Below, in pieces: positions 1,869 to 43,533 of a DNA stretch of 64,000 bases. The position numbers and the translations under genes were made by a program. The notes below the pieces were generated by a model. The model was not told where the DNA came from and did no database searches. It saw nothing but the letters and a program-made list of their open reading frames with translations. How positions within the stretch are numbered: the first letter of the stretch is position 1; each line of letters starts with the position of its first letter. Source of the DNA: an uncultured Acidobacteriota bacterium (GTDB lineage: Bacteria > Acidobacteriota > Thermoanaerobaculia > UBA5066); contig CAIMWE010000123.1 in the NCBI GenBank assembly GCA_903845115.1, positions 1,345 through 65,344 on the forward strand, read 5' to 3'.

Positions 1869-2290
1869 CGGTCCCGGATTTCCGTGCGGCTCGCGAGGTA
1901 GTCGCGGAGGATGACGGCGGCGGCCTCGGCATCGCGGGCCCCCTCCCTCCGTCGGGCCGGAACGCCGGCCTCCCTCAGGTTCTCCTCGGCGGCGACCGTC
2001 GTCAGCCCCTCGCCGTGCAGGTCCACCGGGAGGCCCGACACCTCGCCGAGACGCCGGGCGAAGAGCCGGGTCCTCGTTCCGCTGGGCCCCTCCGACCCGT
2101 CGGGCCGGACCGGATGCCCGACCACGATCCGCCCGACCTCCCGGTCGCGGGCGGCCTCCGCGATCGCGGAGGCCACCTGGGCGTCGTTCTTCCGGAAGAG
2201 GGCCCCGACGGGGACGACGAGGCTGCCCGTCTCGTCGGAGACGGCCAGCCCAACCCGTTTCTCGCCGAAGTCGACCGCCAGGACGCGCAA
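1865..2290 (-). CDS. ruvX: Holliday junction resolvase-like RuvX/YqgF
   Basis: 141 aa beginning MRVLAVDFGEKRVGLAVSD... with the conserved RNase H-like YqgF motifs. Translationally coupled to mltG. Confidence 0.85.
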   Translation of the reverse strand: MRVLAVDFGEKRVGLAVSDETGSLVVPVGALFRKNDAQVASAIAEAARDREVGRIVVGHPVRPDGSEGPSGTRTRLFARRLGEVSGLPVDLHGEGLTTVAAEENLREAGVPARRREGARDAEAAAVILRDYLASRTEIRDR

Positions 2291-2422
2291 CGGGGGCGAG
2301 GATAGGGGTGCCGGGCGCCCGGCGCAAACGAGGATGAAAAGAGGGCCGTCCCTGCGGTTAGAATCCGATCCGCCCGAGGGCCGGGCTCATCGAACCGGCT
2401 CGAACAGGGGGAGTTTGACGAA

Positions 2423-3607
2423 ATGCAAGACGTCCTGATTCTCTCCGCCGCGCGGACTCCGATCGGGAGCTTTCTCGGCTCCCTTTCCTCTCTCTCGGCC
2501 CCCGCGCTCGGCGCCACCGCGCTGAAGTCGGCGCTGGAGCGCGGGGAGACGCCCCCGCACAAGGTCGACCAGGTCATCCTGGGCAACGTCCTCCAGGCCG
2601 GGATCGGCCAGGCCCCGGCCCGGCAGGCGACCCTCGGGGCCGGCCTGCCGAAGGCCACGGGCGCGGTCACCGTCCACAAGGTCTGCGGCTCGGGAATGCG
2701 GGCGGTCATGGACGCCGCCAACGCCATCCGGACCGGCGAGTACTCGGTCGTCCTCGCGGGCGGAATGGAGTCGATGTCCAACGCTCCGTACCTCCTCGCG
2801 AAGGGGCGGACCGGCCTCCGGATGGGGCACGGCCAGCTCCTCGACTCGATGATCTCGGACGGCCTCTGGGACCCCTACAAGAATGTCCACATGGGGGTCT
2901 GCGCCGAGACCTGCGCCGCCAAGTACTCCTTCACCCGCGAGGCGCAGGACGCCTTCGCCTACGAGAGCTACCAGCGCGCCCGGCGGGCGAACGATGCGGG
3001 CGACTTCCGCGCCGAGATGGCCCCGGTGACGATCGAGGGGAAGAAGGGCTCGGTCACGATCGAGAAGGACGAGGAGCCGTTCGCCACGCCCGAGGACAAG
3101 CTCCAGAAGATGGGGAGCCTCCGGCCGGCCTTCCAGAAGGACGGGACGGTGACCGCCGCGAACGCGTCGAAGATCAACGACGGCGCCGCGGCGCTCCTCC
3201 TGGCGGGGACGGCTGCGGCTCAGGAGCTGCCGGCCAAGCCGATCGCCCGCCTCGTCGCGCAGGCGTCGCACGCCCAGGAGCCGGAGTGGTTCACCACGGC
3301 GCCGGCGTTCGCCGCCAGGAAGGCGCTCGAGAGGGCCGGGCTGACCCTCCCGCAGATCGACCTGTTCGAGGTGAACGAGGCCTTCGCCGTCGTGGCGATG
3401 GCGTTCATCCGGGACCTCGAGATCGACCCGAACAAGGTCAACGTGAACGGGGGCGCCGTGGCCCTCGGCCACCCGATCGGGTCATCCGGCGCGCGCATCG
3501 TCACGACGCTGATCCACGCGCTCCGCGCCCGGAAGAAACGCTACGGCCTGGCGGCCATCTGCATCGGCGGCGGGGAGGCGACGGCCGTGGTCGTCGAAGC
3601 GCTGTGA
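2423..3607 (+). CDS. Acetyl-CoA C-acetyltransferase (thiolase)
   Basis: 394 aa with N-terminal [26 protein letters not shown] (active-site Cys) and a C-terminal [11 protein letters not shown] thiolase signature. Confidence 0.9.
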
Positions 3608-4317
3608 TCGACAAGGTCGTCAAGGGGGCCACGCCGAAGGAGGCCGCCGCGAAGGCGGTGGCCGACATCCCGTCGGGCGCCACCCTCGTCGTCGGCGGTT
3701 TCGGCCTCTGCGGGATCCCGGAGAACCTCATCGGGGCGCTCTCGGAGCGGCCCGTGAAGGACCTGACCTGCGTCTCGAACAACTGCGGCGTCGACAACTG
3801 GGGCCTCGGGGTCCTTCTCGGCAAGAAGATGCTCCGGAAGATGCTCTCGTCGTACGTCGGCGAGAACGCCGAGTTCGAGAGGCAGTACCTCTCCGGCGAG
3901 CTGGAGCTGGAGTTCTGCCCGCAGGGGACGCTGGCGGAGCGGATGCGGGCCGGCGGCGCGGGAATCGCCGGTTTCTACACGCCGACCGGAGCCGGGACGC
4001 TGGTGGCGGAGGGGAAGGAGACGAAGGTGTTCGACGGGCGGGAATACGTCCTGGAGCGCGGCATCGTCGGCGACTACGCCCTCGTCGCGGCCTGGAAGGC
4101 CGATCGCTTCGGGAACCTCGTCTACCGGAAGACCGCGAAGAACTTCAACCCGATGGCCGCCACCGCCGGGAAGGTCACGATCGCCGAGGTGGAGGTGCTG
4201 GTGGAAGCCGGCGAGCTGGACCCAGACGAGATCGACACGCCGGGCGTCTACGTCCAGCGGGTCGTCGTGGCTCCCCGCGAGAAGCGGATCGAGCGCCGCA
4301 CCGTGAGGAAGGGGTAA
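3604..4317 (+). CDS. 3-oxoacid CoA-transferase subunit A
   Basis: GTG start overlapping the thiolase stop (GTGA). Motifs [14 protein letters not shown]..., [13 protein letters not shown] and the glutaconate/3-oxoacid CoA-transferase alpha fold. Confidence 0.85.
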
Positions 4318-4320
4318 GCC

Positions 4321-4983
4321 ATGCCGAAGCTGGATCGCGACGGGATCGTCAGGCGCGCGGCGAAGGAGCTGCGCGACGGCATGTACGTCAACCTCGGCAT
4401 CGGGATGCCGACGCTGGTCCCCAACTGGATCCCCGCCGGGATGGAGGTGGTCCTCCAGTCCGAGAACGGGATCCTGGGGATGGGGCCCTTCCCGCTCGAC
4501 GCGGACGTGGACCCCGACCTGATCAACGCCGGGAAGGAGACCGTCACGGTCGTCCCGGGGGCGTCGTTCTTCTCGTCGGCCGACTCCTTCGCGATGATCC
4601 GGGGCGGGCACATCGACCTCTGCATCCTCGGCGCGATGCAGGTCGACGCCGACGGGTCGATCGCGAACTGGATGATCCCCGGGAAGCTCGTGAAGGGGAT
4701 GGGCGGCGCGATGGACCTCGTGGCTGCGGCGCGGCGCGTGATCGTCACGATGGAGCACGTGGCGAGGAACGGCGAGAAGAAGATCCTGAACAAGTGCAAC
4801 CTGCCGCTCACCGGCCTCAGCTGCATCCACCGGATCATCACCGACATGGCCGTCCTGGACGTGAAGCCGGGCGGTGGACTGAGGCTGGTGGAACGGGCCC
4901 CGGGGGTCTCGGTCGCGGAGATCGTGGCCGCGACCGAGCCGCCGCTCGACGTGGCCGGGGACGTGCCGGAGATGCCAGCCTGA
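4321..4983 (+). CDS. 3-oxoacid CoA-transferase subunit B
   Basis: 220 aa with [31 protein letters not shown]...SENG, the CoA-transferase beta signature. Follows subunit A by 3 nt. Confidence 0.85.
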
Positions 4984-5026
4984 CCGCCGGCCCGGCGGCA
5001 CCCTTCTTGCGCGGGCCCCTCTTCGC

Positions 5027-7303
5027 GTGGTGATCGACTCCGAAAGAGGCCGTTCCGCCAGATTTTCCTTTCTCTTCCTCCTCTCGGCAGCCCTGGCCGG
5101 GGCGCTTCCGGCGTCGGCGCAGTCGTCGTTCGAGAGCGACCCGTTCGGCGCCCGCTTCCGGGAACGGTCCTCGTTCGACCTGAAGTTCCGCCTCCCCGAG
5201 AAGGGAGGGTCGGTCAAGGTCACGGTTCCCGAGGGAGAGGGGGGAAGGCAGACCCTGGTCTCGGAGAACGTCTGGGACGCCGAGGCGCCGCCGGGGAAGT
5301 TCGTCACGGTCGAGTACCAGGACATCAAGCTGAGAGCGCGGAAGATCCACGCCGACTACGGTCGGTACGTGGTGATCGCCGAGGGAGACGTCGAGTTCGA
5401 GCAGGGGGCGACCCGGATGCGGGGGAGCCGCCTCGACCTCGACCTGAACGACAAGACCGGCGTCGTGACCGACGGGGACGTCGAGATGGAAGGGGGACTC
5501 CACCTCCGGGGCGACATGCTCGCCAAGGTGGGGCCCCGGTCGTTCACGATGAGCGGCGCGACGCTGACCTCCTGCGACGGGGACAAGCCGGCCTGGCAGT
5601 TCGACTTCTCGTCGGGCCGGGCGACCCTGGAGGAGTACGCGTACCTCTCTCACGTCGTCTTCCGCCTCGGGGGAATCCCGCTCCTGTACACCCCGTACAT
5701 CCTCTGGCCCGCGATGCAGAACCGGACGTCGGGGTTCCTGATCCCGGCCATCGGCTACAGCAGCCAGCGGGGCGGATTCCTCGGCCTCGCCTACTTCTTC
5801 GCGCTGGGGCGGTCGGCCGACGCCACGCTGACCACGGAGAACTACACGAACGGGACCTTCGGCCTCGGGGCCGAGTTCCGGGCGAAGCCGTCGAAGGGGA
5901 CCACCTTCGAGGGAACGTACTTCAGGGTGAACGCGAATGACTCCAACCCCGACCTGGCAGGCTGGGGCTGGAACACGAGGGGGAAGCTCGTCTCGAGCGA
6001 CCTCGCCCCGAACGTCCGCGCCGTCGTCTCGTGGCTCGATTTTTCCAGCCTCGACTTCTTCCAGAACTACTCGCGGGACTTCACCCTCAGCTCCACCCGC
6101 AGCATCAAGTCGGAGGCGTTCGTGACGTGGAGCGTCGACCCCGTCTCGCTCAATTTCCGGCTCGACCACGAGCGGACGATCTTCGACTCGACCGGCGCGT
6201 ACGACGTCGTGACCGAGCGGATGCCCGTGCTGGAGATGCGCCTCCGGCCGACTCCCCTCCTGGGGCAGAACGTCTTCGTGGAGCTGAGCGGCCAGGCCGG
6301 ACAGCTCCACCTGGACCGCGGGCTGGGGCAGCCCGTCGGCACGTACGGCCGTTTCGACCTCTATCCCAAGGTCTCGGTCCCCCTCTCGCCGATCCCGTGG
6401 CTCTCGGTGCAGGCCGACGCCGGAGCGCGGGCCACCTGGTGGGGCAACTCGATCGACCCAGCGAACCCGTCCGCGTTCGACGGCGAGGCGTACACCCGCA
6501 GGCTCGCGCAGGTCGGGGTCCAGGTGACGGGGCCCTCGTTCTCCAGGATCTTCGAGACGACGCTGGGGCCGTTCACGAAGCTCAAGCACATCATCGAGCC
6601 CCGCATCGACTACCAGTACATGACCGACCCGCCCGACCTCGCCAGGGCTCCGCTCTTCGACGAGATCGACACCGTCAGCCCGGATCACTCGGTCAAGTAC
6701 GCGCTGGTCCAGCGGCTCCTCGGGAAGGGGAAGCAGGGGGGCTCGCGGGAGATCGCCTCGCTCGAGATCTCGAGGACGTACTACTTCCGGCTCCCCGACT
6801 ACGGGGCCGCCCCGGTCACCGGACTGACGAAGAGCTCGCCTGTCGACACCATCCTCCGCGTCAACCCCACCGCGAACTTCAACGTGGACGCGCGGGCGAC
6901 CTGGGACCCGATCGCCGCGCAGATCACCGCGGCCAGTCTCTCCGCGAACCTCAACGCGAAGGACAAGATGCTGTCGCTCTCCTACTTCGAGACCAACCCC
7001 ACCGCCGCGACCTGCACTCCCACGCCCGACGTCCCCTGCGTCTCCACTCAGATCCGGATCTTCGGGGGAATGCCGATCATCCCGAAGCGGCTCCGCCTCG
7101 ACCTCCAGACGAACTACGACCTCTCGCTCTCCAAGCTGCTCGAGTTCCGGACGCTCCTCACGCTGGAGGCCTCCTGCTACAAGATCCTCTTCGAGTACCG
7201 GGACCTGAGGCTCGGCACGACGGTCCCGTCCCGCGACATCCGGATCGGCCTGAACCTCAAGAACATCGGCAGCTTCCTCGACTTCCCGATCTCCCTCCCG
7301 TGA
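5027..7303 (+). CDS. lptD: LPS-assembly outer-membrane protein LptD (OstA family)
   Basis: 758 aa with an N-terminal signal peptide, an OstA N-terminal-like region (HADYGRYVVIAEGDVEFEQGATRMRGSRLDLDLN) and a long beta-barrel C-terminal region. Confidence 0.75.
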   Translation: MVIDSERGRSARFSFLFLLSAALAGALPASAQSSFESDPFGARFRERSSFDLKFRLPEKGGSVKVTVPEGEGGRQTLVSENVWDAEAPPGKFVTVEYQDIKLRARKIHADYGRYVVIAEGDVEFEQGATRMRGSRLDLDLNDKTGVVTDGDVEMEGGLHLRGDMLAKVGPRSFTMSGATLTSCDGDKPAWQFDFSSGRATLEEYAYLSHVVFRLGGIPLLYTPYILWPAMQNRTSGFLIPAIGYSSQRGGFLGLAYFFALGRSADATLTTENYTNGTFGLGAEFRAKPSKGTTFEGTYFRVNANDSNPDLAGWGWNTRGKLVSSDLAPNVRAVVSWLDFSSLDFFQNYSRDFTLSSTRSIKSEAFVTWSVDPVSLNFRLDHERTIFDSTGAYDVVTERMPVLEMRLRPTPLLGQNVFVELSGQAGQLHLDRGLGQPVGTYGRFDLYPKVSVPLSPIPWLSVQADAGARATWWGNSIDPANPSAFDGEAYTRRLAQVGVQVTGPSFSRIFETTLGPFTKLKHIIEPRIDYQYMTDPPDLARAPLFDEIDTVSPDHSVKYALVQRLLGKGKQGGSREIASLEISRTYYFRLPDYGAAPVTGLTKSSPVDTILRVNPTANFNVDARATWDPIAAQITAASLSANLNAKDKMLSLSYFETNPTAATCTPTPDVPCVSTQIRIFGGMPIIPKRLRLDLQTNYDLSLSKLLEFRTLLTLEASCYKILFEYRDLRLGTTVPSRDIRIGLNLKNIGSFLDFPISLP

Positions 7304-7358
7304 CGCCCGGAGCGCGGCGCCTCTCGCCCGTTCCGGGGGCTGCTAAACTCCGCCCCTC

Positions 7359-8444
7359 GTGAAGGGACTCATTCTCTCCGGCGGGAAGGGCACGCGCCTC
7401 AGGCCGCTCACCTACACCTCCGCCAAGCAGCTCGTCCCGGTGGCGAACAAGCCGGTCCTCTTCTACGGCATCGAGTCGCTCGTGTCGGCCGGGATCCGGG
7501 AGATCGGCATCGTCGTGGGGGACACCCACGCCGAGATCGAGGCCGCGGTGGGCGACGGCTCGCGCTTCGGGGCGAGGGTCACCTACATTCCCCAGGACGC
7601 CCCGCGCGGGCTGGCGCACGCGGTCCTCATCGCCGAGCCGTTCCTCCGCGGATCGCGGTTCGTCATGTACCTCGGCGACAACCTCCTGCAGCGGGGGATC
7701 ACCGCCCTCGTCGAGGAGTACCTGCAGCTCGGAGTCGACTGCGAGATCCTGCTGACCCGGGTCCCGAACCCCTCCTCGTTCGGGGTGGCGGAGCTGGACG
7801 CGACGGGGCGCGTGGCGCGCCTCGTGGAGAAGCCGAAGGAGCCTCGGTCCGACCTCGCGCTGGTCGGCGTCTACCTCTTCAACGAGACCGTCTTCGACGC
7901 GGTGAAGGCGATCCAGCCTTCGCCCCGCGGGGAGCTGGAGATCACCGACGCGATCCAGTGGCTCGTCGACCACGGCCGGAGCGTCCACGCCCACCTCGTC
8001 TCGGGGTGGTGGAAGGACACCGGCAAGGCCGAGGACATGCTGGAGGCGAACCGGACCGTCCTGGACGGCCTGGAGGACCACCGCGGGACCGCCACGGTCG
8101 ACTCGTCGAGCCGCGTCGAGGGGAAGGTCGTCTTCGAGGGGCCGCCCGGATCGGTCGTCCTCGTCGACTCCGTCGTCCGGGGGCCCGCCGTGATCGGAGA
8201 AGGGAGCCGCATCGAGCGGAGCTTCGTCGGCCCGTACACCGCGATCGCGGCCGGCTGCCGGCTGAACCGCGTGGAGATCGAAAACTCGATCGTCTGGGAG
8301 GGGTCGACCCTCGAGGACGTCTCGCTCAGGATCTCGGACTCGCTGATCGGGCGCGGCGTCGTGATCCGGCGCGACCCGGAGCGCAAGCCGAAGGCCCACC
8401 GCTTCCTCGTGGGGGATGCCTCCGAGGTCGGCATCGGCGAGTGA
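7359..8444 (+). CDS. Glucose-1-phosphate thymidylyltransferase, long form with a C-terminal left-handed beta-helix
   Basis: MKGLILSGGKGTRLRPLTYTSAKQLVPVANKPVLFYGIE is the sugar-nucleotidyltransferase signature. The C-terminus has hexapeptide repeats. Confidence 0.8.
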   Translation: MKGLILSGGKGTRLRPLTYTSAKQLVPVANKPVLFYGIESLVSAGIREIGIVVGDTHAEIEAAVGDGSRFGARVTYIPQDAPRGLAHAVLIAEPFLRGSRFVMYLGDNLLQRGITALVEEYLQLGVDCEILLTRVPNPSSFGVAELDATGRVARLVEKPKEPRSDLALVGVYLFNETVFDAVKAIQPSPRGELEITDAIQWLVDHGRSVHAHLVSGWWKDTGKAEDMLEANRTVLDGLEDHRGTATVDSSSRVEGKVVFEGPPGSVVLVDSVVRGPAVIGEGSRIERSFVGPYTAIAAGCRLNRVEIENSIVWEGSTLEDVSLRISDSLIGRGVVIRRDPERKPKAHRFLVGDASEVGIGE

Positions 8445-36294: not shown

Positions 36295-36936
36295 TTGGAC
36301 GCAGGAATCGCGATCGACGACGAGGACGTGAGGCGCACCCTGCGCGCGTGGATCGAGGCCAGCATCCCGCCCCTTCACGGCTGGGCCACCGTGGAGAAGG
36401 GGCTCGCGCTGGCGGAGCTCGTGTACGCGACGCGCGCCGAGTCCTCCGTCGAGATCGGGGTGTTCGGGGGCCGCGGGACGATCTCCATGGCGCTCGGCCA
36501 CCGGGCGGCCGGCCGGGGCGTGGTCACGGCCATCGACCCGTGGGAAGCCGGAGCGGCGCTCGAGGGGGAGAACTCTCCCGAGAACGACGAGTGGTGGCAG
36601 AAGATCGACTACGAGGAGATCTTCCAGCATTTCGTCGGCGCCCTCGAGGCGTGCGGCCTGTCCGGGCAGTGCCGGATCCTCCGGAAGCGCTCCCACGATG
36701 CCGTGACGCTCTTCGAGGACGAAAGCATTTCCGTGCTCCACCAGGACGGCAACCACTCGGAGAAGGTCTCTTGCGCCGAAGTGCAGTCGTGGGGCCCGAA
36801 GGTCGGCCCTGGCGGGTACTGGGTCGCCGACGACACCGACTGGCCGACCACCCGGCGCGCCCAGGAGATGCTCCTGGAAAGGGGATTCCGGGTGATCGAG
36901 GACCGCGGCGCCTGGCGCGTCTACCAGAAGCCGTGA
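36295..36936 (+). CDS. Class I SAM-dependent methyltransferase, Methyltransf_24 (TylF/CmcI-like) family
   Basis: VEIGVFGGRGTISMALG (SAM-binding glycine-rich loop) and VLHQDGNHSEKVSCAEV, which fits the hxDGDHsye pattern of this family. The start codon is uncertain (a TTG at 36295 or a GTG at 36328). Confidence 0.6.
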   Translation: MDAGIAIDDEDVRRTLRAWIEASIPPLHGWATVEKGLALAELVYATRAESSVEIGVFGGRGTISMALGHRAAGRGVVTAIDPWEAGAALEGENSPENDEWWQKIDYEEIFQHFVGALEACGLSGQCRILRKRSHDAVTLFEDESISVLHQDGNHSEKVSCAEVQSWGPKVGPGGYWVADDTDWPTTRRAQEMLLERGFRVIEDRGAWRVYQKP

Positions 36937-36938
36937 CG

Positions 36939-37997
36939 ATGGTCGGGGCGTTCGGGGCCTGGATCGGGGACCGCATCTCGCGCCTTCGGGCGGAGCGTCG
37001 GAAACGGGCGCCGCTCTCCTCGTGGGACACCGGCCTCAGCGTCGTCTACGTCACCCGTCGCGCCGAGCCGCGCTTCGACTGGTTCGCCGATAGCCTGGCT
37101 TCCCAGCTAGGCGGAGAGGAGAGCCTCGAGGTCGTCTTCGTGGACGGGTTTCACTCCGCCGGGAGGTCGGCGGCCCTCGCAGGGATCGTGCGTGGCCGCT
37201 TTCCCTACCGGCACGTCCCCCCCAAGCCCTCCCCGTTGAGCGGCCCCTACAGGCTGACGGCGCGGGAATATTTCGCGGCTGCGAGCGCGCGCAACACGGG
37301 GATCGTCTACGCCCGGCACCCGTACGTCGTCTTCGTCGACGACGTATCGGTCCTCCTCCCGGGCTGGTGGAAGGAGGTTCGCCGGGCTGCGAGGCTCCGG
37401 TACGTGGTTGCCGGCGCCTACCAGAAACACTTCGAGATGACCGTGGAGGACGGCCTCCTCGTCGCGAGCCGGTCGGAGCCAGCCGGGATCGACTCGCGCT
37501 GGGCCCTGGGCGATTCCGGGGGCCTGGTTCCCATCCCGGGCGGCCAGCTGTACGGCTCGAGCGTCGGGGTGCCGCGGGACGCCCTCCTCGCCGTCAACGG
37601 CTTCGACGAGCTCTGCGACTCGGCCGGGGGCGAGGACTACCAGCTCGGAGTGCGACTGGAGTGGGCCGGGGAAGCGATCTACTACAGCCGCGCGATGCTG
37701 ACGGTCGAGAGCGAGGAGCTTCACCGGCAGGGCGCCGCTCTCGGTGGCATCGATCGCACGCTGGACGAGGCCGCCTACATGAGCTTGCTCAGGACGTTCG
37801 GGGTGGGGCGCCGCACGACTGACGGCCCGCGCGAGATGGGCTTCATGGTCCTCGACATCCTCTACGGGACGCATTCGGTCCGGTCCCTGGGCAACTCCTA
37901 CTCCCTCGCGGAGCTCCGGGAGGAGGATCTTCCCGGTCTCGTCGAAAGGTTCCCCCGCCGCCACTGGTTCACGGGCGAGGCCCTCTCCGACCTATGA
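36939..37997 (+). CDS. Hypothetical protein, possibly a GT-A-like nucleotide-sugar transferase
   Basis: 352 aa. VVFVDGFHS and HPYVVFVDDVSVLLPGWW, two hydrophobic-D-D style segments, and FDELCDSAGGEDYQLGVRLEW. Weak assignment. Confidence 0.35.
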   Translation: MVGAFGAWIGDRISRLRAERRKRAPLSSWDTGLSVVYVTRRAEPRFDWFADSLASQLGGEESLEVVFVDGFHSAGRSAALAGIVRGRFPYRHVPPKPSPLSGPYRLTAREYFAAASARNTGIVYARHPYVVFVDDVSVLLPGWWKEVRRAARLRYVVAGAYQKHFEMTVEDGLLVASRSEPAGIDSRWALGDSGGLVPIPGGQLYGSSVGVPRDALLAVNGFDELCDSAGGEDYQLGVRLEWAGEAIYYSRAMLTVESEELHRQGAALGGIDRTLDEAAYMSLLRTFGVGRRTTDGPREMGFMVLDILYGTHSVRSLGNSYSLAELREEDLPGLVERFPRRHWFTGEALSDL

Positions 37998-38917
37998 GGC
38001 CGCAGGCCCTCCACCGGCGGATCGTCTCGCGAGGGGACCTGCCGGGAAGCGACGGCGGGATCTACAACCCCGCGGCGGTCCCGGCTGGCTCCGCGATCCT
38101 CCTGCTGTGTCGCCGGGAGATCGACTACCGATTCACCGCCCGGGTCCACCCGGAGGCGATCCTCGTCGATCCCGACTCCTTCGCCGTCCTGCGTCACTGG
38201 ACGCTCCAGAAACGGGGCTTCCCCCGGTCTTCCCGCGTGGAGGACTTCCGGCTCCTCGCGCACCGGGACGAGCTCCTCGTCGTCCACACCCTCGTCACGG
38301 AGGACCGGATCAAGCCCGTGATCTCCCGCGTCTCGGGCAGGCGGCTGGAGCTGTTCGACGAGCTCGAGCTCCCCGTGGCGATCGACCGCGTGGAGAAGAA
38401 CTGGGTCCTCTTCGAGCGGGGAGGGACGATCCACTGCCTCTACCGGCTCGACCCCCTCACGATCTTCGCCAGGAAGCGGCGCGGATCGTGGACTCTCGTC
38501 CGGCGGGAGCCGAGCGGCTGGTCGGGCGAGCTCGAAGGCGGGCTGAGCAACTCCACCAACCTCATCCCGTTCATGGACGGATTCCTGGGCTTCTGGCACA
38601 CGCGGCTCCACGGACGGTACGTCCAGGGCGCCTTCCTCCTCGACGCCGACCTGCGGCTCCGGTTTCGGACGGGCGTGCTGCTCGACGGCGCCGACGTCCG
38701 AGAGGGGTTCAAGCCGGGCGTTCTCTACGTCAGCGCCCTCGTCGAGCATCGGGGGACGATCCTCGCGTTCTACGGCGAGGGAGACGCCCACACGAGCGTC
38801 GCGATCTTCGACGCCCGGGAGCTCGAGGACGAGCTCCGGCGTTCCCCGTCGGCGGGCGAAGGCCCTGCGCCGGACGGCGGGTTCCGGTCCTGGTGCCCTG
38901 TCTGCGACCTGCGCTAG
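37994..38917 (+). CDS. Hypothetical protein of unknown family; paralogous to the C-terminal domain of the 41413..43533 protein
   Basis: Shared motif blocks with the GT2-TPR protein C-terminus: GIYNPAAV..ILLLCRRE vs LACNPSIL..YLVNCRAV, EKNWVLFE vs QKNWLPFVE, H.RLHGRYVQGAFLLD vs HGIRYYLHRFLLLD. Confidence 0.5.
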   Translation: MRPQALHRRIVSRGDLPGSDGGIYNPAAVPAGSAILLLCRREIDYRFTARVHPEAILVDPDSFAVLRHWTLQKRGFPRSSRVEDFRLLAHRDELLVVHTLVTEDRIKPVISRVSGRRLELFDELELPVAIDRVEKNWVLFERGGTIHCLYRLDPLTIFARKRRGSWTLVRREPSGWSGELEGGLSNSTNLIPFMDGFLGFWHTRLHGRYVQGAFLLDADLRLRFRTGVLLDGADVREGFKPGVLYVSALVEHRGTILAFYGEGDAHTSVAIFDARELEDELRRSPSAGEGPAPDGGFRSWCPVCDLR

Positions 38918-38956: not shown

Positions 38957-39766
38957 CTACCTTCCGGCGTCGCCCCCCCGCCCGCCGGGCCTCCTCGGCA
39001 TTCCCGCGATCAGCGCGCGGGCGGCCCCGTCCGCCTCTCCCCGAGCCCCCTTGAGAGCCTCTGCCCGTATCGCGGCGAGACGGAGCGTCCGGGAAGCGAG
39101 GTCGAGGCGCTGCCGGCCCGCCAGGGCGAAGCTGAGGAGCTCGAGGAGGGCTTCCCCGGCCGACAGCTTCGTCGGATTCCACGCCGCCCCGGGACGGTGC
39201 CTGAGGACGGCGATCCTTCCCACCGGGAGGGGGCGCGCGGGCACTCGTGCCCCGAGGGACTCGTGGCCGACGCGCAGGAAGCCGTCCCTCCGGAGCACGA
39301 TGGGGCGGGCGTAGGGGTGGGCCCGGCCCTGTTCGTCGATCACGGCGAACTCGTCCGAGAGGTACTCGGCGCCGGCACGCAGCAGAGCCGCGACGAGCTC
39401 GCTCTTGCCGCTGCCCGACCGTCCGGGCAGGAGGATGGCCTGGCCGTTCCACGCGACCGCCCCCGCGTGCACGAAGACGAGCCCCTCGGCGCGGCATGCG
39501 AGGAACCGCTCCACGTCGTCGACGACGAGGTCCGCGGCGACGGCGGCGGTGGGCGCGTTCAGCACGAGGCGGGCGCCCCGGCGGACGGCCATTCCCGGAC
39601 GGGCGCCGTCATCGTCCCTCACGGCGTAGCGCCGGTCCGCCGGGGCCGCCGGAGACAGCGCCTCCACCGGCGGCAGCCGGGCGGAGAGGAGCGGCCAGAA
39701 CGAGGCGTCGGGCGCGTCGACCCTCAACGCGACACCGAAGAGCCGGAACGTGGTCCGCTCGGGCAA
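38957..39766 (-). CDS. HPr-kinase/phosphorylase C-terminal-domain-like P-loop kinase (lasso-peptide-kinase-like)
   Basis: GRSGSGKSE Walker A in the HprK-like context (AILLPGRSGSGKSELVAALLRAGAEYLSDEFAVID). No N-terminal HprK regulatory domain. 269 aa. Confidence 0.7.
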   Translation of the reverse strand: MPERTTFRLFGVALRVDAPDASFWPLLSARLPPVEALSPAAPADRRYAVRDDDGARPGMAVRRGARLVLNAPTAAVAADLVVDDVERFLACRAEGLVFVHAGAVAWNGQAILLPGRSGSGKSELVAALLRAGAEYLSDEFAVIDEQGRAHPYARPIVLRRDGFLRVGHESLGARVPARPLPVGRIAVLRHRPGAAWNPTKLSAGEALLELLSFALAGRQRLDLASRTLRLAAIRAEALKGARGEADGAARALIAGMPRRPGGRGGDAGR

Positions 39767-39773
39767 GGCCGCG

Positions 39774-40955
39774 TCAGGCCGCCCGCCAGCGAAGGCGGGA
39801 GCGGATCTTCTTCAGGAGCGCGAGGGGGAGCTCTCTCTCCTGGTGCAGGCCCCACATCTCCCGCAGGTACGTCGGGAACGCCCGGATCCGCTCTCCGAGG
39901 GGAAGGGCTTTCAGCTCCCCGGACGAGGCGCGCCAGTGGAGGAAGACCCCTCGGAGCAGCGACGGCCGCCGCATTCGCGAAGCGACCTCCAGGCGGCGGC
40001 GCCACCCGCGGGAATGCCGCCGGAGGTTCGCCAGGACCTCGGTCGGCACGGCGGCGCCGAACTCCGACCCCAGGAAATTCAGCGCAAGCAGGAGGGGGAG
40101 GCAGAGGTCCCGGGCGCGCGCCTCGGAGACGAGAACGTCCCAGTCGAGGGCCGCGGGCTCGCGCCGGAGGAGGAGGACGGCGTCGGCGACCCAGTGTACG
40201 GGGGGGACGGGGCTCCATCGAAGGCCGTGCACGCACACGGACAGGAGATGGTCGGCCGGCGACAGGGTCCAGGCCCTCACGTCGCCCGAGACGAAGGGGA
40301 CGCTCCGGGCGAGAAAGCCCGCGTCGGCCCCTCCGGCACACGACTCCATCAGTGCGTGCCGGTGAAGGTCGACCTCCATCGGCGCCGGACCCGCGAAAGC
40401 TTGGCCGTGAAGATGGAGCATCCGGGACGCGGGCTCTCGCGCCACCGCTCGCCACCCCTCGGCCTCGAGGCAGCCCACGGCGGCGCCGAATTCTCCCTCG
40501 GGGACGAGAAGGTCGACGTCCCCCATGGGCCGCAGCGCCCGGTGGGGATAGACGAGCGCGGCGAGGGCGAGGCCTTTGATCACGACCACCCGGCTGACGA
40601 CCCGCGACAGCGAACCGATCAGCGATGCGGCCGCATCGGCGATCCCCTCCTGCTGGACCCAGGCTTCCTCCACGGTCCCGGGCCTTCCCGTCGCGGTGCC
40701 CGCCGCCAGGATCCCCAGCCTCCTGAGGTTCCACTCTGCCAGCGGAAGGAGGCGGCGCGCCGGACCCGAGGGGGGGCTCCCCCCGGCCAGCAACCACCGG
40801 TCCCAGGCGTTGCCGGCTCCTTCGCCCTCGAACAGGCCGGCCCGCAGGAGGTCGAGATCCGAGCCGCCTGGCCGGGTTCCCCGCGGCTCCGATATACTGG
40901 CCACGTTCGAGCGAATGAGACCCGCTCCATCGTGCGGGAACACGGAGGACGGCAT
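39774..40955 (-). CDS. Nucleotidyltransferase-family protein of the PF14907 (RiPP/lasso-associated NTase) type
   Basis: 393 aa with the hG[GS]/DxD NTase core (PMGDVDLLVPEG). Size and layout fit PF14907. It sits 8 nt upstream of the HprK-like gene on the same strand. Assignment is by pattern memory. Confidence 0.6.
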   Translation of the reverse strand: MPSSVFPHDGAGLIRSNVASISEPRGTRPGGSDLDLLRAGLFEGEGAGNAWDRWLLAGGSPPSGPARRLLPLAEWNLRRLGILAAGTATGRPGTVEEAWVQQEGIADAAASLIGSLSRVVSRVVVIKGLALAALVYPHRALRPMGDVDLLVPEGEFGAAVGCLEAEGWRAVAREPASRMLHLHGQAFAGPAPMEVDLHRHALMESCAGGADAGFLARSVPFVSGDVRAWTLSPADHLLSVCVHGLRWSPVPPVHWVADAVLLLRREPAALDWDVLVSEARARDLCLPLLLALNFLGSEFGAAVPTEVLANLRRHSRGWRRRLEVASRMRRPSLLRGVFLHWRASSGELKALPLGERIRAFPTYLREMWGLHQERELPLALLKKIRSRLRWRAA

Positions 40956-41382
40956 GACCGTATCGTACCCGAGGGCCCGCCGCGTCGGTCTGAGGACCGA
41001 GACGCTCCTCGACGAGTTGCTCGTCTACGACCTCGCCAAGAAGAAGGCTCACTGCCTCAACGCGACGGCGGCGTGCGTCTACCAGCTCGCGGACGGAACG
41101 CGTTCGACGAAGGTCCTCGCCAAGGAGCTCTCGGAGCGCTTCGGAACCCCGGCTGGCGAGGACCTCGTCTGGTACTGCCTGGACGAGCTCGGGCGCCAGG
41201 GACTCCTGGAGTCGGGCCAGGCGGAGACGTCGAAGGTGGTGGTCCCGTCGCGCCGCCACCTGCTGACCCGCCTCGGAATCGCGGCCGCCGTTCTCCCGGT
41301 CGTCCTCTCCGTGGCGCTGCCTCGTCCGGCGTCGGCTCAGCTGCGGAGCCCCGGGCCGACGGGCACTCCCATCCCCGACTAG
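40936..41382 (+). CDS. PqqD-family protein (RiPP recognition element-like) with an unusual C-terminal extension
   Basis: TETLLDELLVYDLAKKKAHCLNATAACVYQLADGTRSTKVLAKELSERFGTPAGEDLVWYCLDELGRQGLLE matches the PqqD/RRE winged-helix pattern (LxxYD...hxLNxxAxxIWxL.DG..T...L). Track coordinates are used. The ATG I read lies about 18 nt later, where it shares a CATG with the divergent NTase start. Confidence 0.65.
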   Translation, partial: GNTEDGMTVSYPRARRVGLRTETLLDELLVYDLAKKKAHCLNATAACVYQLADGTRSTKVLAKELSERFGTPAGEDLVWYCLDELGRQGLLESGQAETSKVVVPSRRHLLTRLGIAAAVLPVVLSVALPRPASAQLRSPGPTGTPIPD

Positions 41383-41412: not shown

Positions 41413-43533
41413 ATGACCCGGGAATCGCGCGCCTCGAGGGAACCGTCCCCGCCGCCCAGGGTCTGCCTCTGCATGATCGTCCGGAACGAGAAGCGAGTCC
41501 TCCGGCGCTGCCTCGACGCGGCCGGGCCGATCGTCGACGCGGTCAGCCTCTGCGACACCGGGTCGGACGACGGGACGCCGGAGATCGCGACCGCGTGGCT
41601 CGCCGAACGGTCCGTTCCGGGGCGCGTTCACCGCCACGTCTTCCGCAACTTCGGCCGCAACCGGACCCTCGCGGCCGAAGCGGCCCGCCGGACGATGCTC
41701 GGCCTCGGCTGGGACCTCGAGACGAGCTACCTCCTCTTCCTGGACGCCGACATGGTCCTCGAGATCGCGCCGTCGTTCCGGGCGAAGTCGCTCGGGGCGG
41801 ACGTCTACCGCGTCTTCCAGCGGAACGGCCGGTATCTCTACCCGAACGTCCGCCTGGTCCGCGCGAGCCTTCTCGGGCGTTTCCTGGGGGCCACCCACGA
41901 GTTCTTCCAGCCTCCACCGGGGACGCGGCAGCGGACTCTCGAGACGCTCTCCATCGACGACCGGTCGGACGGGGGGTTTCGCGCCCAGAAGCTCGAGAGG
42001 GACCGCAGGCTCCTCCTGGCGGAACTCCGCGCGAGGCCGCGGGACACGCGGGCCATGTTCTATCTCGCGCAGACCTTTCGGGACCGGCTGGAATGGGACG
42101 ACGCCCTCCGCTGGTATCGAAAGCGCATCGGAGCCGCGGTAGGGGCCGAAGAGGTCTGGTACTCCCACTACGCGAGCGGTCTCATCCAGCTGCGAAGGGG
42201 AGACACCCGGGCCGCGGTCTCGAGCCTCCACCGGGCGATCCGTCTCGATCCCTCGCGAGCCGAGCCCTACTACTACCTGGCCGGCTACCTGGCCGCCCGC
42301 GGGCGCTTCCTCTTCGCGGCGCGACTCGCCCGGCGCGGGGCAGCGCTCCCGATGCCCCGGAACCGCTCTCTGTTCCTGGAACCTGACGTCTACCGGTGGG
42401 GGCTTCTCTCCGAGTTCGCCCGGCTGGCCTACTTCACGCGGCTCCGCGACGCGGGGCTCGAGGTAAACGAACGGCTGGTCCTGGGCGCCGGCACTCCCGC
42501 CGACGCGGTGGAGCGGGCGAAGGGAAACGCCGTCCTGTATGCGCGGCCCCTGCCCGACGCCACCTACCTCGAGCTCACGCCCAAGCTGCCCGCCGGCTAC
42601 CTCGCCTGCAACCCCAGCATCCTCAGGACGACGAGCGGGTACCTCGTGAACTGCCGCGCCGTCAGCTACCGGCTCGACGAGTCCCAGCGCTATCACTCCC
42701 GGAGGCCGGACGGTGCGCTCCGGACCCGCAACTTCCTCCTCCGGACGGACCGTTCGCTCCGTTCCCTCGAGCAGCAAGAGCTCCGCTGCCGCGAGCGGCC
42801 GTTGCGCCCCAGCCACGTTCGGGGGCTCGAGGACTGCCGGATCTTCCGGCTGGGCGGGTCCCTCGCCGCCACGTGCACGACGGCCGAGCTCCACCCGGCG
42901 GGCCCGGCGCGCATGTCGCTGGTCCGGTTCGACCGCGACCTCGGGCTCGTCCGGCACCTGCCCCTCACCGGCTACCGGGACGCCCTCCCCCAGAAGAACT
43001 GGCTTCCTTTCGTGGAACCGGCCACCGGCGACCTCCAGGCGGTTTACGGCCTTGCGCCGTTCGTCACGCTTCGGATCGACCCCGCGAGCGGCGTGTGCGA
43101 GCCCACGAGGGAACGAGCCGAGCCCAGGCCCTTCGGGGACTTTCGCGGTTCCGCCGGGCCCGTCGACCTGCCCCGGCCGCTCGGCGGCGGCCGACTGCTG
43201 CTCGTCCACGAGGTGGCGTTCCACGGCATCCGCTATTACCTGCACCGCTTCCTGCTGCTGGATCGGGGCTGGCGGGTCACTCGCGTGTCACGCCCGTTCT
43301 TCTTCCACCACCGGGGGATCGAGTTCGCGAGCGGCGCCTGCGTCGCCCACGGAGGGAGGGACCTCCTCGTGACGCTCGGCGTCGAGGACCGGGAGGCCTG
43401 GATCTGTCGCGTCTCCCTCCGCTCCGTCCTCGCCTCCCTGCGCCCGCTCCCCGACGCTGAAGAATTCCCAGGGAGCGGAGAGGTAGCGGCGGGCGGAGCC
43501 CGACGCGCAGGGGAACCGGAGGGGTTCCCCTGA
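41413..43533 (+). CDS. Multidomain protein: SunS-like GT2 glycosyltransferase, TPR-like helical region, and an about 330-aa unknown C-terminal domain
   Basis: N-terminus CLCMIVRNEKRVLRRCLDAAGPIVDAVSLCDTGSDDGT...FLDADM is the GT-A DxD, comparable to the glycocin glycosyltransferase SunS (GIIVYNE...CLNS..., FIDADN). TPR-like helices (AMFYLAQTFRDRLEWDDALRWYRKRI; EPYYYLAGYLAARG). The C-terminal domain is a paralog of 37994..38917. Confidence 0.65.
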   Translation: MTRESRASREPSPPPRVCLCMIVRNEKRVLRRCLDAAGPIVDAVSLCDTGSDDGTPEIATAWLAERSVPGRVHRHVFRNFGRNRTLAAEAARRTMLGLGWDLETSYLLFLDADMVLEIAPSFRAKSLGADVYRVFQRNGRYLYPNVRLVRASLLGRFLGATHEFFQPPPGTRQRTLETLSIDDRSDGGFRAQKLERDRRLLLAELRARPRDTRAMFYLAQTFRDRLEWDDALRWYRKRIGAAVGAEEVWYSHYASGLIQLRRGDTRAAVSSLHRAIRLDPSRAEPYYYLAGYLAARGRFLFAARLARRGAALPMPRNRSLFLEPDVYRWGLLSEFARLAYFTRLRDAGLEVNERLVLGAGTPADAVERAKGNAVLYARPLPDATYLELTPKLPAGYLACNPSILRTTSGYLVNCRAVSYRLDESQRYHSRRPDGALRTRNFLLRTDRSLRSLEQQELRCRERPLRPSHVRGLEDCRIFRLGGSLAATCTTAELHPAGPARMSLVRFDRDLGLVRHLPLTGYRDALPQKNWLPFVEPATGDLQAVYGLAPFVTLRIDPASGVCEPTRERAEPRPFGDFRGSAGPVDLPRPLGGGRLLLVHEVAFHGIRYYLHRFLLLDRGWRVTRVSRPFFFHHRGIEFASGACVAHGGRDLLVTLGVEDREAWICRVSLRSVLASLRPLPDAEEFPGSGEVAAGGARRAGEPEGFP

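Follow-up and report, generated by a model that had tools for sequence, protein, structure and literature searches.

A gene in a 64-kb stretch of DNA (64,000 nucleotides, the whole of which we call the window) encodes a three-domain protein that is, with a probability we put at roughly 60%, a cytoplasmic protein O-glycosyltransferase of the GT-A plus TPR type known from SunS/ThuS, GmaR and SgtA. Its acceptor would be the threonine of Gly-X-Thr (collagen-like) motifs, here most likely that in the tail QLRSPGPTGTPIPD of the protein encoded upstream. The proposal draws on observed folds, homologies and gene order, and on an observed statistical link between the enzyme family and Gly-X-Thr tails. 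Because the front half of the enzyme resembles protein-glycosylating enzymes and its homologs neighbour Gly-X-Thr sequences across groups, glycosylation of the Gly-Pro-Thr tail appears to be its most likely function.

The translation of the open reading frame, MTRESRASREPSPPPRVCLCMIVRNEKRVLRRCLDAAGPIVDAVSLCDTGSDDGT...YLLFLDADMVLE, contains the motifs quoted in an earlier reading made from the letters alone (the sequence-only reading), which had proposed a SunS/ThuS-like GT-A domain with TPR helices at the N-terminus. Motifs, Pfam, the AlphaFold2 model and the structural search all agree with that proposal. Pfam Glycos_transf_2 (PF00535) matches aa 19-116 above its cutoff (27.3 versus 23.3 bits), several Pfam TPR models match aa 250-308, all below threshold, and aa 205-310 match designed consensus TPR proteins with an E of 1.9e-22. 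In the AlphaFold2 model, which was built from 45 homologs (pLDDT 93, pTM 0.88), an alpha/beta domain (aa 16-183) is followed by ten helices (aa 190-376) and an all-beta domain (aa 384-668). Among the 45 homologs the DxD motif (here D111-A-D113, the DAD of aa 111-113), CDTGSxDxT, THE and DDxxDGG are invariant, and the invariance of the DxD, CDTGSxDxT and THE motifs argues for an active transferase. The full three-domain architecture is kept in 397 homologs (33-72% identity to the enzyme described here) and is conserved over many phyla. The span singled out in the sequence-only reading, 41413-42400 (aa 1-329), does take in the GT-A domain and the greater part of the TPR region, yet amounts to just 47% of the gene; overlooked there were the GH130-like domain at the C-terminus and the link of the whole family to Gly-X-Thr sequences.

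Features of the gene cluster, with positions in the window
Feature	Coordinates	Strand	Remarks
Methyltransf_24 SAM-dependent methyltransferase	36295..36936	+	PF13578, E 4e-16
Second GT2 glycosyltransferase	36972..37997	+	weakly EpsD/MftF-like
Stand-alone GH130-like protein	37994..38917	+	weak PF04041 match; paralogue of the C-terminal domain of the target
HPr-kinase-like P-loop protein	38957..39766	-	Walker A GRSGSGKS at aa 115; TIGR04352 E 1.4e-16
NTP_transf_5 nucleotidyltransferase-family protein	39774..40955	-	PF14907, E 5.7e-30
Putative acceptor/precursor, 142 aa	40954..41382	+	PqqD/RRE domain, Tat-like signal, short tail
PqqD/RRE domain	40981..41208	+	aa ~10-85; three strands then three helices; model pLDDT >90
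Internal Tat-like signal	41248..41337	+	aa 99-128, SRRHLLTRLGIAAAVLPVVLSVALPRPASA; TIGR01409
C-terminal tail, candidate glycosylated core	41338..41379	+	QLRSPGPTGTPIPD; 14 residues, GPTG motif
Target gene	41413..43533	+	706-aa three-domain protein: GT-A, TPR, GH130-like beta-propeller
GT-A (GT2) catalytic domain	41446..41976	+	aa ~12-188; PF00535, invariant columns, profile matches
TPR-like helical domain	41977..42540	+	aa ~189-376, ten helices; Pfam, consensus TPR, model
GH130-like beta-propeller domain	42550..43470	+	aa ~380-686; Foldseek, weak profile matches

When the predicted model was compared with the PDB by Foldseek, the check that had been suggested against SunS (7MSN and relatives), 7msn, 7msk and 7msp took ranks 1-6 (E 7e-14 to 1.5e-11; TM-scores on target 0.55-0.68). 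Among all PDB chains the N-terminal ~370 aa are nearest to SunS (7msn/7msp, E 7e-14; 290 columns, 2.8-3.1 A) and ThuS (7msk), and since the SunS/ThuS alignments extend over 360-380 columns, they cover the TPR region. A single-sequence search of PDB sequences gave short N-terminal matches to GmaR and ThuS only, so that profiles were needed. With these, GmaR was matched at E 3e-15 (22ao_A, profile positions 7-200) and 3e-12 (GT-A domain), SunS at 6e-13 and 3e-7, and ThuS at 3e-9 and 5e-6, whereas a polysaccharide GT2, chondroitin synthase, came behind all three at E 1e-4 only. By profile comparison, then, the GT-A domain groups with protein and peptide glycosyltransferases and not with polysaccharide GT2s, which is the opposite of the generic grouping that the sequence-only reading had set against its own proposal.

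The likeness to SunS/ThuS, whose substrates are ribosomal peptides, takes in aa ~1-370 of the enzyme, but identity is 14-16%, their own acceptor is a Cys (for ThuS also a Ser) in a helix-loop-helix bacteriocin, their own clusters contain SunT, BdbA/B and an immunity gene, and they have neither a propeller domain nor an RRE partner. GmaR, the flagellin O-GlcNAc transferase of Listeria monocytogenes (PDB 22ao), is the best sequence-profile match of the GT-A domain, has the motif IVxNEE...CL.S...D.I.I.DTGSTD.T in common with it, and is likewise a GT2 plus TPR protein O-glycosyltransferase; it differs in its substrate, in doubling as an anti-repressor and in lacking a propeller domain. Flagellin glycosylation of the GmaR type was rejected for this cluster because the open reading frames and the Pfam scan revealed no flagellar genes inside or flanking it. 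To our knowledge, the characterised GT-A plus TPR protein glycosyltransferases are a handful of Firmicutes enzymes, namely SunS/ThuS, GmaR and SgtA.

SgtA of C. difficile (CD3350; 358 aa, GT-A plus TPR) was assayed in vitro with UDP-GlcNAc as donor and Mn2+, and there transfers beta-O-GlcNAc onto Thr in the BclA3 GPT repeats (PMC7157674). Compared by published architecture and gene context, it has a GT-A domain (~260 aa) followed by C-terminal TPR and is encoded beside a collagen-like GPT-repeat protein; an adjacency of this kind holds at the family level for the enzyme studied here, and this family-wide Gly-X-Thr link suggests SgtA, by analogy, as a closer functional analogue than SunS. Unlike our enzyme, SgtA lacks a GH130-like domain, and it acts on a spore exosporium protein rather than on a PqqD-Tat-tail protein. 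SgtA was not among the best 120 of 3107 matches to the two-domain relative from Desulfosporosinus (Clostridia); Bacillaceae are named among the matches listed for this relative.

The family-level link was seen in 83 loci with homologs of the enzyme, drawn from Chlamydiota, Chloroflexota, Actinomycetota, Proteobacteria, Acidobacteriota, Planctomycetota and Firmicutes. Gly-X-Thr-repeat ORFs cluster around the homologs, with 65 within 3 kb and 3 farther off, that is, at 14.8 versus 0.37 per 100 kb, a 40-fold difference (binomial p 4e-26; this value and the Fisher p below overstate independence because the loci are phylogenetically related). Such an ORF lies within 3 kb in 49 of the 83 loci overall and in 44 of the 70 with the three-domain form; the other 26 three-domain loci have none at the threshold used, and a number of Actinomycetota loci have a neighbour with just a short GPTGxTGPTGP motif. 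The collagen-like neighbours lack a PqqD domain in most phyla; in the Acidobacteriota and at one locus from Planctomycetota, the Gly-X-Thr repeat forms the tail of a PqqD-Tat-like protein encoded directly upstream of the enzyme. Two-domain Firmicutes relatives (35-38% identity over aa 16-376) adjoin BclA-like genes, and relatives without the propeller keep collagen-like neighbours. Relatives of the family are also found among giant viruses and phages.

An independent sample was drawn in the reverse direction, from 120 metagenome loci seeded on the PqqD motif only by a degenerate DNA pattern scan. It held 104 ORFs with Cys-rich tails and 2 with Gly-X-Thr tails, and HMMs built for the GT-A domain and for the GH130-like one matched exactly the latter two loci and no other of the sample (2/2 versus 0/104; Fisher p 1.8e-4). 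Two more GPT-tail proteins (L089, L090) have adjacent glycosyltransferases, and two Cys-tail loci have none.

The neighbouring protein had been described earlier as an RRE-type PqqD protein, and judged by its model and its relatives this fold is genuine. Its own Pfam PqqD score is slightly below the cutoff (21.6 versus 23.4 bits), and 33 of the 34 members of its family match; PqqD_rel_X (TIGR04353) scores 20.1 bits, far below its cutoff of 35, and is matched at E<=0.05 by 17 of the 34. The model predicts strands at aa 13-35 and helices at aa 37-81, which is the beta3-alpha3 RRE fold, and a further strand at aa 117-121. Its top PDB folds are the lasso B1 RREs TbiB1 (5v1u) and 6jx3, TigE, and PqqD (5sxy), with TM-scores on target of 0.61-0.78 for the stand-alone RREs and 0.16 for TigE, a chain of 448 residues. 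Behind this domain TIGR01409 (TAT_signal_seq) scores 17.6 bits against a cutoff of 16.7; an SRRHLL motif, an h-region of 16 aa and ASA can all be recognised, but within the protein rather than at its N-terminus. Across the family R100 and R101 vary little or not at all. TIGR01409 is matched by only 6 of the 34 relatives, and the Tat-signal HMM matches 3 of ten neighbouring collagen-like proteins weakly, so that the term Tat-like rests mostly on the visible RR pair and the hydrophobic stretch.

Relatives of the 142-aa protein carry (GPT)n collagen-like tails at the position where the protein in the window has one full GPT triplet plus GTP (GPTGTP). In QLRSPGPTGTPIPD lies the only GPTG after a signal sequence in the whole 64 kb, and this tail, already named as a possible acceptor in the sequence-only reading, is the best candidate. 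As here, the enzyme gene begins 30 bp past the PqqD-tail gene in six loci; in the most similar complete cluster (L015) the tail is QTGFTAV, without any GPT. Of the peptide or protein S- or O-glycosylation envisaged at the outset, the protein-directed part is supported by the profile comparisons, and S-glycosylation is unlikely because the candidate tail contains no Cys.

The C-terminal domain of the predicted model is matched by the GH130 phosphorylases 4udk, 1vkd, 7fip and 4kmi (Foldseek E 2e-9 to 4e-8), with 3wau and 5ayd likewise among the GH130-fold matches (TM-scores on target 0.54-0.65 for the set). A Pfam scan of the protein gave no match in this region, which scores below every curated GH130 threshold; 4 of 15 homologs match the Pfam GH130/BMT models weakly (best E 0.011), and a PDB profile search with the domain returned GH130 chains only, again weakly (E 0.13-1.1). 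Invariant in the domain are E473-D474-x-R476, K528-N529-W530, H599, Y609 and R612, and by analogy, rather than by residue-level alignment to a GH130 structure, E473-D474 would correspond to the Glu141-Asp142 pair carried by the GH130 enzyme BT3780 (PMC4599007). GH130 enzymes themselves are marked by an invariant catalytic Asp and by three basic residues that bind phosphate, for which the candidates here are D474 and the basic residues among those just listed. GH130 enzymes are phosphorylases or hydrolases, some with weak transferase activity (PMC4599007, PMC12814180). The domain resembles the mannoside phosphorylases and hydrolases of GH130, to which the GT108 and GT91 (BMT) beta-mannosyltransferases are related, in its propeller fold and, putatively, in its invariant Glu-Asp pair; unlike in those enzymes, the propeller is here fused to a GT-A/TPR module. 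Its paralogue, the stand-alone GH130-like protein, aligns with the C-terminal profile in hhalign at a probability of 95.7% (E 9.5e-9, 246 columns) and has the EDxR and EKNW motifs in common with it; BLASTP of the C-terminal half against this ORF gave nothing significant, the homology being visible by profile comparison only.

Among the other cluster genes, that for the NTP_transf_5 protein, which probably starts downstream of the ATG listed for it, is conserved beside PqqD-tail genes. The HPr-kinase-like protein scores 60.5 bits with HprK_rel_A (TIGR04352), far below the cutoff of 200; its gene is found in 43 of the 120 PqqD-seeded loci, and in one protein (P0293) an HprK-like domain and the PqqD-tail protein are fused. 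Both genes commonly accompany PqqD-tail proteins without an enzyme of the type described here. Relatives of the second GT2 (48-59% identity) adjoin homologs of the enzyme in 9 loci, 8 of them in Actinomycetota, and the methyltransferase gene is adjacent in L002/L003 and L015 and fused to homologs of the enzyme in P0063 and P0079. Between 36295 and 43533 each gene follows the last with no gap above 40 bp, which leaves no room for a small precursor ORF.

In lasso peptides, an HPr-kinase homologue phosphorylates Ser and a nucleotidyltransferase then adds hexoses to the phosphate (PMC8498205). The cluster recalls this kinase/nucleotidyltransferase tailoring (paeninodin, pseudomycoidin) and the NCBIfam 'HPr-rel-A system' in combining an HPr-kinase homologue, an NTP_transf_5-type nucleotidyltransferase and a PqqD/RRE protein whose closest folds are lasso B1 proteins; it differs in having neither a lasso cyclase nor a B2 protease, and in the fusion of the RRE to the putative substrate via the Tat-like signal. 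In the searchable literature we found no account of proteins that combine a PqqD domain with a Tat-like signal and a variable tail and occur with a kinase and a nucleotidyltransferase, and searches on PqqD with collagen-like proteins, on Tat with collagen-like proteins and glycosyltransferases, and on HPr-rel-A, TIGR04352 or PF14907 returned nothing relevant.

The sequence-only reading had called the glycosyltransferase glycocin-type, in which case the enzyme would be a peptide S-glycosyltransferase with an antimicrobial glycopeptide as product. Glycocin clusters are defined by a SunA-like precursor, a SunT-type transporter and thiol-disulfide oxidoreductases, and the SunA-type precursor has ~60 aa, a helix-loop-helix, an acceptor Cys in a Gly-Cys-Gly-Gly/Ser loop and disulfide Cys (PMC6405829). 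Although SunS and ThuS are the best PDB structural matches and are detectable by profile, the low identity, the additional GH130-like domain, the Cys-free tail and the missing intergenic space speak against this reading; the cluster holds no SunA-type Cys precursor, and Pfam scans of its seven genes and five flanking ones found neither a SunT-type C39 peptidase/ABC exporter nor Bdb/Trx/DsbB thiol-disulfide oxidoreductases. We therefore regard a glycocin as scarcely credible here. It is also quite improbable that the two GT2s, the two GH130-like domains and the methyltransferase form a polysaccharide or glycolipid cluster that makes a methylated mannan-like polymer, with the PqqD, HprK and NTP_transf_5 genes as an unrelated neighbouring module. 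The weak EpsD match of the second GT2 would fit such a cluster, mannosides are substrates of GH130 and BMT-like domains, and Methyltransf_24 enzymes often methylate sugars. However, the GT-A domain groups with protein and peptide glycosyltransferases, Pfam scans found no flippase, polymerase, priming transferase or export genes in the cluster, and the specific, reciprocal association with Gly-X-Thr proteins would be left unexplained.

The invariant Glu-Asp pair and several invariant basic residues of the propeller, together with the known phosphorolytic, hydrolytic and weak transferase activities of GH130 enzymes, could also mean that the GH130-like half is the main activity and recycles or trims a beta-mannoside, the GT-A/TPR part being a targeting or regulatory module comparable to GmaR as anti-repressor. 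We consider this very improbable, given that the GT-A motifs are invariant in 45 homologs and that the propeller-less two-domain relatives retain their collagen-like neighbours. Less far-fetched, though still unlikely, is an enzyme that O-glycosylates Gly-X-Thr or Tat-exported proteins encoded elsewhere, in trans, with the PqqD protein serving only as an adaptor, a chaperone or a substrate of the kinase and nucleotidyltransferase. The tails in the window and in L015 are very short or devoid of GPT, the collagen-like neighbours in most phyla have no PqqD domain, and PqqD-tail proteins commonly occur with the HprK-like and NTP_transf_5 genes in the absence of the enzyme, all of which would suit a substrate in trans. 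Against it stand the uniqueness of GPTG after a signal sequence among the ORFs of the window, the recurrent 30-bp spacing of the two genes, and the exact tracking of tail type by the enzyme in the PqqD-seeded sample.

The donor sugar, the acceptor and the export route of the product are what we infer in the following scheme. The GT-A domain would place the first sugar on the Thr of GPTG, for which SgtA offers UDP-HexNAc as a precedent. The propeller, the stand-alone GH130-like paralogue, the second GT2 and the methyltransferase would then extend or trim and methylate the glycan, and a phospho-linked sugar like that of phosphoglycosylated lasso peptides may come from the HPr-kinase-like and NTP_transf_5 proteins, which the PqqD domain would recruit. 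The modified tail would leave via Tat, and signal peptidase may release it after Ala-Ser-Ala. The neighbours of the chlamydial homologs appear to have Sec-type signals, which fits poorly with glycosylation in the cytoplasm followed by export in the folded state.

We tentatively extend this scheme to the cluster as a whole, whose product is possibly an undescribed kind of ribosomal, modified and secreted product. Its precursor would carry its own PqqD domain, a Tat-type signal as 'leader' and a hypervariable core; most of the ~4750 cluster representatives have a Cys-rich core, and this subtype has a Gly-X-Thr one. Tailoring would be by HPr-kinase-like and NTP_transf_5 proteins and, in the cytoplasm, through O-glycosylation by a SunS/SgtA-like glycosyltransferase fused to a GH130-like propeller, before Tat export in the folded state and release by signal peptidase.

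GT-A plus TPR modules fused to GH130-like propellers occur widely, among the Acidobacteriota, Chlamydiota, Chloroflexota, Actinomycetota, Proteobacteria and Planctomycetota, and offer a candidate route for the glycosylation of bacterial collagen-like surface proteins outside spore-formers. This suggests that the modification of such proteins takes place in the cytoplasm and precedes their export by Tat. The size of the enzyme and of its 14-residue candidate substrate suits direct in vitro work. Beyond this subtype, the very large family in which a PqqD domain and a Tat-like signal precede a variable tail, with a kinase and a nucleotidyltransferase alongside, may represent a new route to secreted modified peptides.

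The translation of the target opens with MTRESRASREPSPPPRVCLCMIVRNEKRVLRRCLDAAGPIVDAVSLCDTGSDDGT... and, in a window of about 70% G+C, contains all the motifs cited in the sequence-only reading, including LLFLDADM (D111-A-D113). Pfam recognizes Glycos_transf_2 at residues 19-116 (27.3 bits against a cutoff of 23.3) and gives sub-threshold TPR matches at residues 250-308, while residues 205-310 match consensus TPR proteins in the PDB at E 1.9e-22. An AlphaFold2 model of the 706-residue protein, built on 45 homologs (pLDDT 93, pTM 0.88), divides it into three domains (see table), of which the previously proposed SunS-like GT2 + TPR region spans only the first two. Among 5.8 billion proteins searched we found 397 homologs, which have 33-72% identity and cover 92-97% of the query, so that the whole architecture of 660-720 residues is conserved. 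The DxD, CDTGSxDxT, THE and DDxxDGG motifs are invariant across the family, which argues for the GT-A domain being an active transferase. The only name that NCBI gives to proteins of this type is 'tetratricopeptide repeat-containing glycosyltransferase'. In BFVD the model has strong structural relatives among Caudovirales phages and giant viruses, Pithovirus-like ones included, with E values from 6e-36 to 1e-24, identities of 16-33% and as many as about 530 aligned columns; one phage protein reaches 745 alignment columns.

When the model was compared with the PDB by Foldseek, SunS (7msn, 7msp) and ThuS (7msk) ranked at the top, with E values of 7e-14 to 1.5e-11 over 290-380 columns and an rmsd of 2.8-3.1 A to 7msp. 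In sequence alone, the family profile matches GmaR, the flagellin O-GlcNAc transferase of Listeria, at E 3e-15, followed by SunS (6e-13) and ThuS (3e-9). With a profile restricted to the GT-A domain, the same three come at 3e-12, 3e-7 and 5e-6, and the first polysaccharide enzyme, a chondroitin synthase, does not appear before 1e-4. Both the best folds and the best profiles thus agree with the proposed SunS-like GT2 + TPR assignment. Given that GmaR, SunS and ThuS all precede chondroitin synthase and that a TPR domain is present, the comparison also speaks against the alternative named in that reading, a generic polysaccharide GT2 without TPR domain. These likenesses differ in kind: GmaR is the closest GT-A sequence and SunS/ThuS the closest solved fold, whereas the likeness to SgtA of C. 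difficile is one of proposed acceptor type, resting on architecture and context. SgtA, a GT-A + TPR protein of 358 aa, attaches beta-O-GlcNAc to the threonine of GPT repeats in vitro (PMC7157674).

The sequence-only reading overlooked the C-terminal half, which is GH130-like. In Foldseek, residues ~380-686 match the GH130 mannoside phosphorylases 4udk, 1vkd, 7fip, 4kmi, 3wau and 5ayd (E 2e-9 to 4e-8). A profile of the propeller domain finds only GH130 chains in the PDB, faintly (E 0.13-1.1), and Pfam GH130 is touched by 4 of 15 homologs and BMT, a fungal beta-mannosyltransferase family, by 3 of 15. The domain is homologous, as judged by profile alignment (hhalign probability 95.7%, E 9.5e-9, 246 columns), to the product of the stand-alone ORF 37994-38917, with which it shares the NPS, (L/V)EDxR and EKNW motifs. 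Two paralogues of the GH130-like beta-propeller are encoded in the cluster, a free one and one (42550-43470) that forms part of the glycosyltransferase. Invariant in the propeller are a Glu-Asp pair, E473-D474, and the basic residues R476, K528, H599 and R612, which would correspond by analogy to the Glu141-Asp142 pair and the basic phosphate-binding residues of GH130 enzymes (PMC4599007). Since weak glycosyltransferase activity occurs in some of the GH130 enzymes that use beta-1,2 and beta-1,3 mannosides (PMC12814180), it is plausible that this domain adds sugar.

The target is the last of seven tightly packed genes with housekeeping genes on both sides, SecF upstream and a dicarboxylate symporter, DedA, RelA/SpoT and PilM downstream. 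All seven, in rearranged order, are found in an Acidobacteria MAG (L015), and subsets occur at the loci L001 and L023 and in a Planctomycetota genome (L066). Genes for a peptidase/ABC exporter, thioredoxin or DsbB are missing from the cluster, whose intergenic gaps leave no room even for a small precursor. A glycocin system was rejected because these features, which define glycocin clusters (PMC6405829), were looked for and are all absent, thus placing the target outside such systems. The listed start codons of the divergent NTP_transf_5 (minus strand, 40955) and PqqD-like (plus strand, 40954) genes overlap at 40953-40955; given that the NTP_transf_5 homolog in L001 has 371 aa against 393 aa in the window, the true start probably lies downstream of the one listed, leaving a short divergent promoter region. 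In two homologs of the target (P0063 and P0079, 890-892 aa) a Methyltransf_24 domain is fused to the enzyme; in the window the methyltransferase is a separate gene (36295-36936), and one also lies beside a chlamydial-type homolog on a 2.1-Mb contig (L002/L003). Together, fusion and adjacency point to a methylated sugar.

Genes of the cluster in the window and domains of the target
Feature	Position	Strand	Basis
Methyltransf_24 methyltransferase	36295-36936	+	
Second GT2	36972-37997	+	
GH130-like paralogue	37994-38917	+	
HPr-kinase-like P-loop protein (GRSGSGKS)	38957-39766	-	
NTP_transf_5	39774-40955	-	
PqqD-like protein	40954-41382	+	
Target	41413-43533	+	
Target, alpha/beta domain	aa 16-183		AlphaFold2 model
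Target, helical domain (ten helices)	aa 190-376		AlphaFold2 model
Target, all-beta domain	aa 384-668		AlphaFold2 model

Directly upstream of the target, the PqqD-like protein (142 aa) is modeled (pLDDT 85) with three strands and three helices at residues 13-81, and its best PDB folds are leader-bound B1 RREs of lasso-peptide systems (TbiB1, 5v1u; 6jx3, rmsd 2.2 A) and PqqD, in agreement with its earlier description as an RRE-type neighbor. The domain is followed by SRRHLLTRLGIAAAVLPVVLSVALPRPASA and a 14-residue tail, QLRSPGPTGTPIPD. The product thus combines an RRE, a Tat-like signal and a tail in one chain. The SRRHLLTRLGIAAAVLPVVLSVALPRPASA region (residues 99-128) scores 17.6 bits against the NCBI Tat-signal model, whose cutoff is 16.7. 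Among proteins at the same position upstream of target homologs, those of L001, L013, L023 and L066 carry an RR-hydrophobic-AxA segment and then a tail of collagen-like (GPT)n sequence, at most ~190 residues long; the tails in L007 and L015 are instead short. An exhaustive HMMER search returned 4750 cluster representatives at E<=1e-3, with alignments that extend over the PqqD domain as well as the RR segment, in which the twin arginines are (nearly) invariant. In a sample of 34 members, Pfam PqqD was found in 33 and Pfam Collagen in 7; because Tat-HMM scores were obtained for only 6, all weak, 'Tat signal' is an interpretation. The family layout is a PqqD/RRE domain, a Tat-like RR, hydrophobic and AxA stretch, and a hypervariable tail, which may consist of Gly-X-Thr repeats, Cys-rich peptides, GPQ repeats or a Cys-rich segment with a Hint domain. 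We found no description of such a family in the searchable literature.

Several members of this family are unusual. In P0293 (439 aa), a natural fusion, an HprK-like P-loop domain is joined to a PqqD domain with Tat-like segment and GPT tail, in support of a functional connection of the kinase-like with the PqqD-tail protein. P0242 (4040 aa) has 49 separate stretches matching residues 92-135 of the PqqD-like protein, the RR-hydrophobic segment. In P0334 and P0376 a Hint/intein-like (PT-HINT) domain comes after the Cys-rich tail, which suggests a variant with autoproteolytic release or toxin delivery. RREs take up leader peptides as an extra strand, and AlphaFold predicts a beta-strand, VVLSV (residues 117-121, window 41302-41316, pLDDT about 80), inside the Tat-like hydrophobic region; given these two points, the PqqD/RRE domain might bind its own signal/leader in cis.

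A scan for target homologs, with one genome per species, gave 80 loci from Chlamydiota, Chloroflexota, Actinomycetota, Alpha- and Betaproteobacteria, Acidobacteriota, Planctomycetota, Myxococcota and Firmicutes, to which three were added from contig look-ups. In 49 of these 83 loci an ORF with Gly-X-Thr repeats lies within 3 kb of the homolog. Overall, 65 such ORFs fall within 3 kb (0.44 Mb) versus 3 farther away (0.81 Mb), a 40-fold enrichment (binomial p 4e-26, with loci that are not independent). No Gly-X-Thr repeat ORF was detected in 26 of the 70 three-domain loci. Many of the Gly-X-Thr neighbors in Chloroflexia, Betaproteobacteria and Actinomycetota have a Tat-like (RR-hydrophobic) N-terminal signal, and in Actinomycetota loci without long repeats the downstream gene encodes a Tat-like signal followed by GPTGxTGPTGP. 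In Firmicutes the Gly-X-Thr neighbors are BclA-like; the relatives there lack the propeller and consist of GT-A and TPR domains (35-38% identity over residues 16-376), with BclA-like genes nearby in 5 of the 13 loci. In the Bacillus cereus group, no collagen-like ORF was found within 10 kb of the two-domain relatives in the set L076-L083, unlike L072-L075 and L079; there the substrate may be encoded elsewhere, e.g. by bclA. Two betaproteobacterial collagen-like neighbors (L032 9253-9933, L068 5498-6319) combine a Tat-like N-terminal signal with a PEP-CTERM-like C-terminus, a hydrophobic stretch ending ...ALRRLR that weakly matches the midcut-by-XrtH model. In the Chloroflexia loci L017 (6892-9856), L018 (7068-9845) and L027, two to three tandem paralogous genes precede the enzyme, each encoding a Tat-like signal and a globular domain in addition to Gly-X-Thr repeats; a long glycine-rich C-terminus of GGTGG type is present in some.

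The association was also approached from the other side, independently of the enzyme, by scanning a soil-dominated metagenome sample for DNA that could encode the PqqD motif VYD-x5-AHCLN, using a degenerate pattern. The scan gave 120 loci (L094-L213, 0.47 Mb) with 127 PqqD-like ORFs, of which 104 have Cys-rich and 2 have Gly-X-Thr tails. The only loci matched by the GT-A and GH130-like HMMs are L144 and L195, precisely those whose tails are of the Gly-X-Thr type (Fisher p 1.8e-4). HprK-like genes occur in 43 and NTP_transf_5-like genes in 42 of the 120 loci, although the contigs are mostly short. Kinase, nucleotidyltransferase and PqqD-tail protein therefore make up a core, with the target-type enzyme as an accessory that goes only with Gly-X-Thr tails. 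Contig look-ups placed one GPT-tail member (L089) beside a 361-aa GT2+TPR protein and another (L090) beside an 1863-aa GT2+GT25 protein (2162-7753), GT25 being the family of animal collagen galactosyltransferases. Two Cys-tail members had no adjacent glycosyltransferase in the same look-ups.

The analogy with SgtA and these context statistics make threonine in the GPTG motif of the neighboring protein's tail the most likely site of O-glycosylation by the GT-A domain. Substrate binding would fall to the TPR domain, and glycan elaboration to the methyltransferase and the second GT2 together with the GH130-like domain and its free paralogue. A phospho-linked sugar may be added by the HprK-like and NTP_transf_5 proteins, an addition described in paeninodin and pseudomycoidin (PMC8498205), and the modified product would presumably be exported by Tat. 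Weak points of this mechanism are the very short tail in the window, the L015 tail without GPT, the 26 three-domain loci in which no repeat ORF was detected, the link to SgtA by architecture and context only, and the chlamydial neighbors, which appear Sec-dependent. Neither the three-domain fusion, its multi-phylum distribution nor the PqqD-Tat-tail partner was found in the searchable literature, and the precursor system around the enzyme may represent a new kind.
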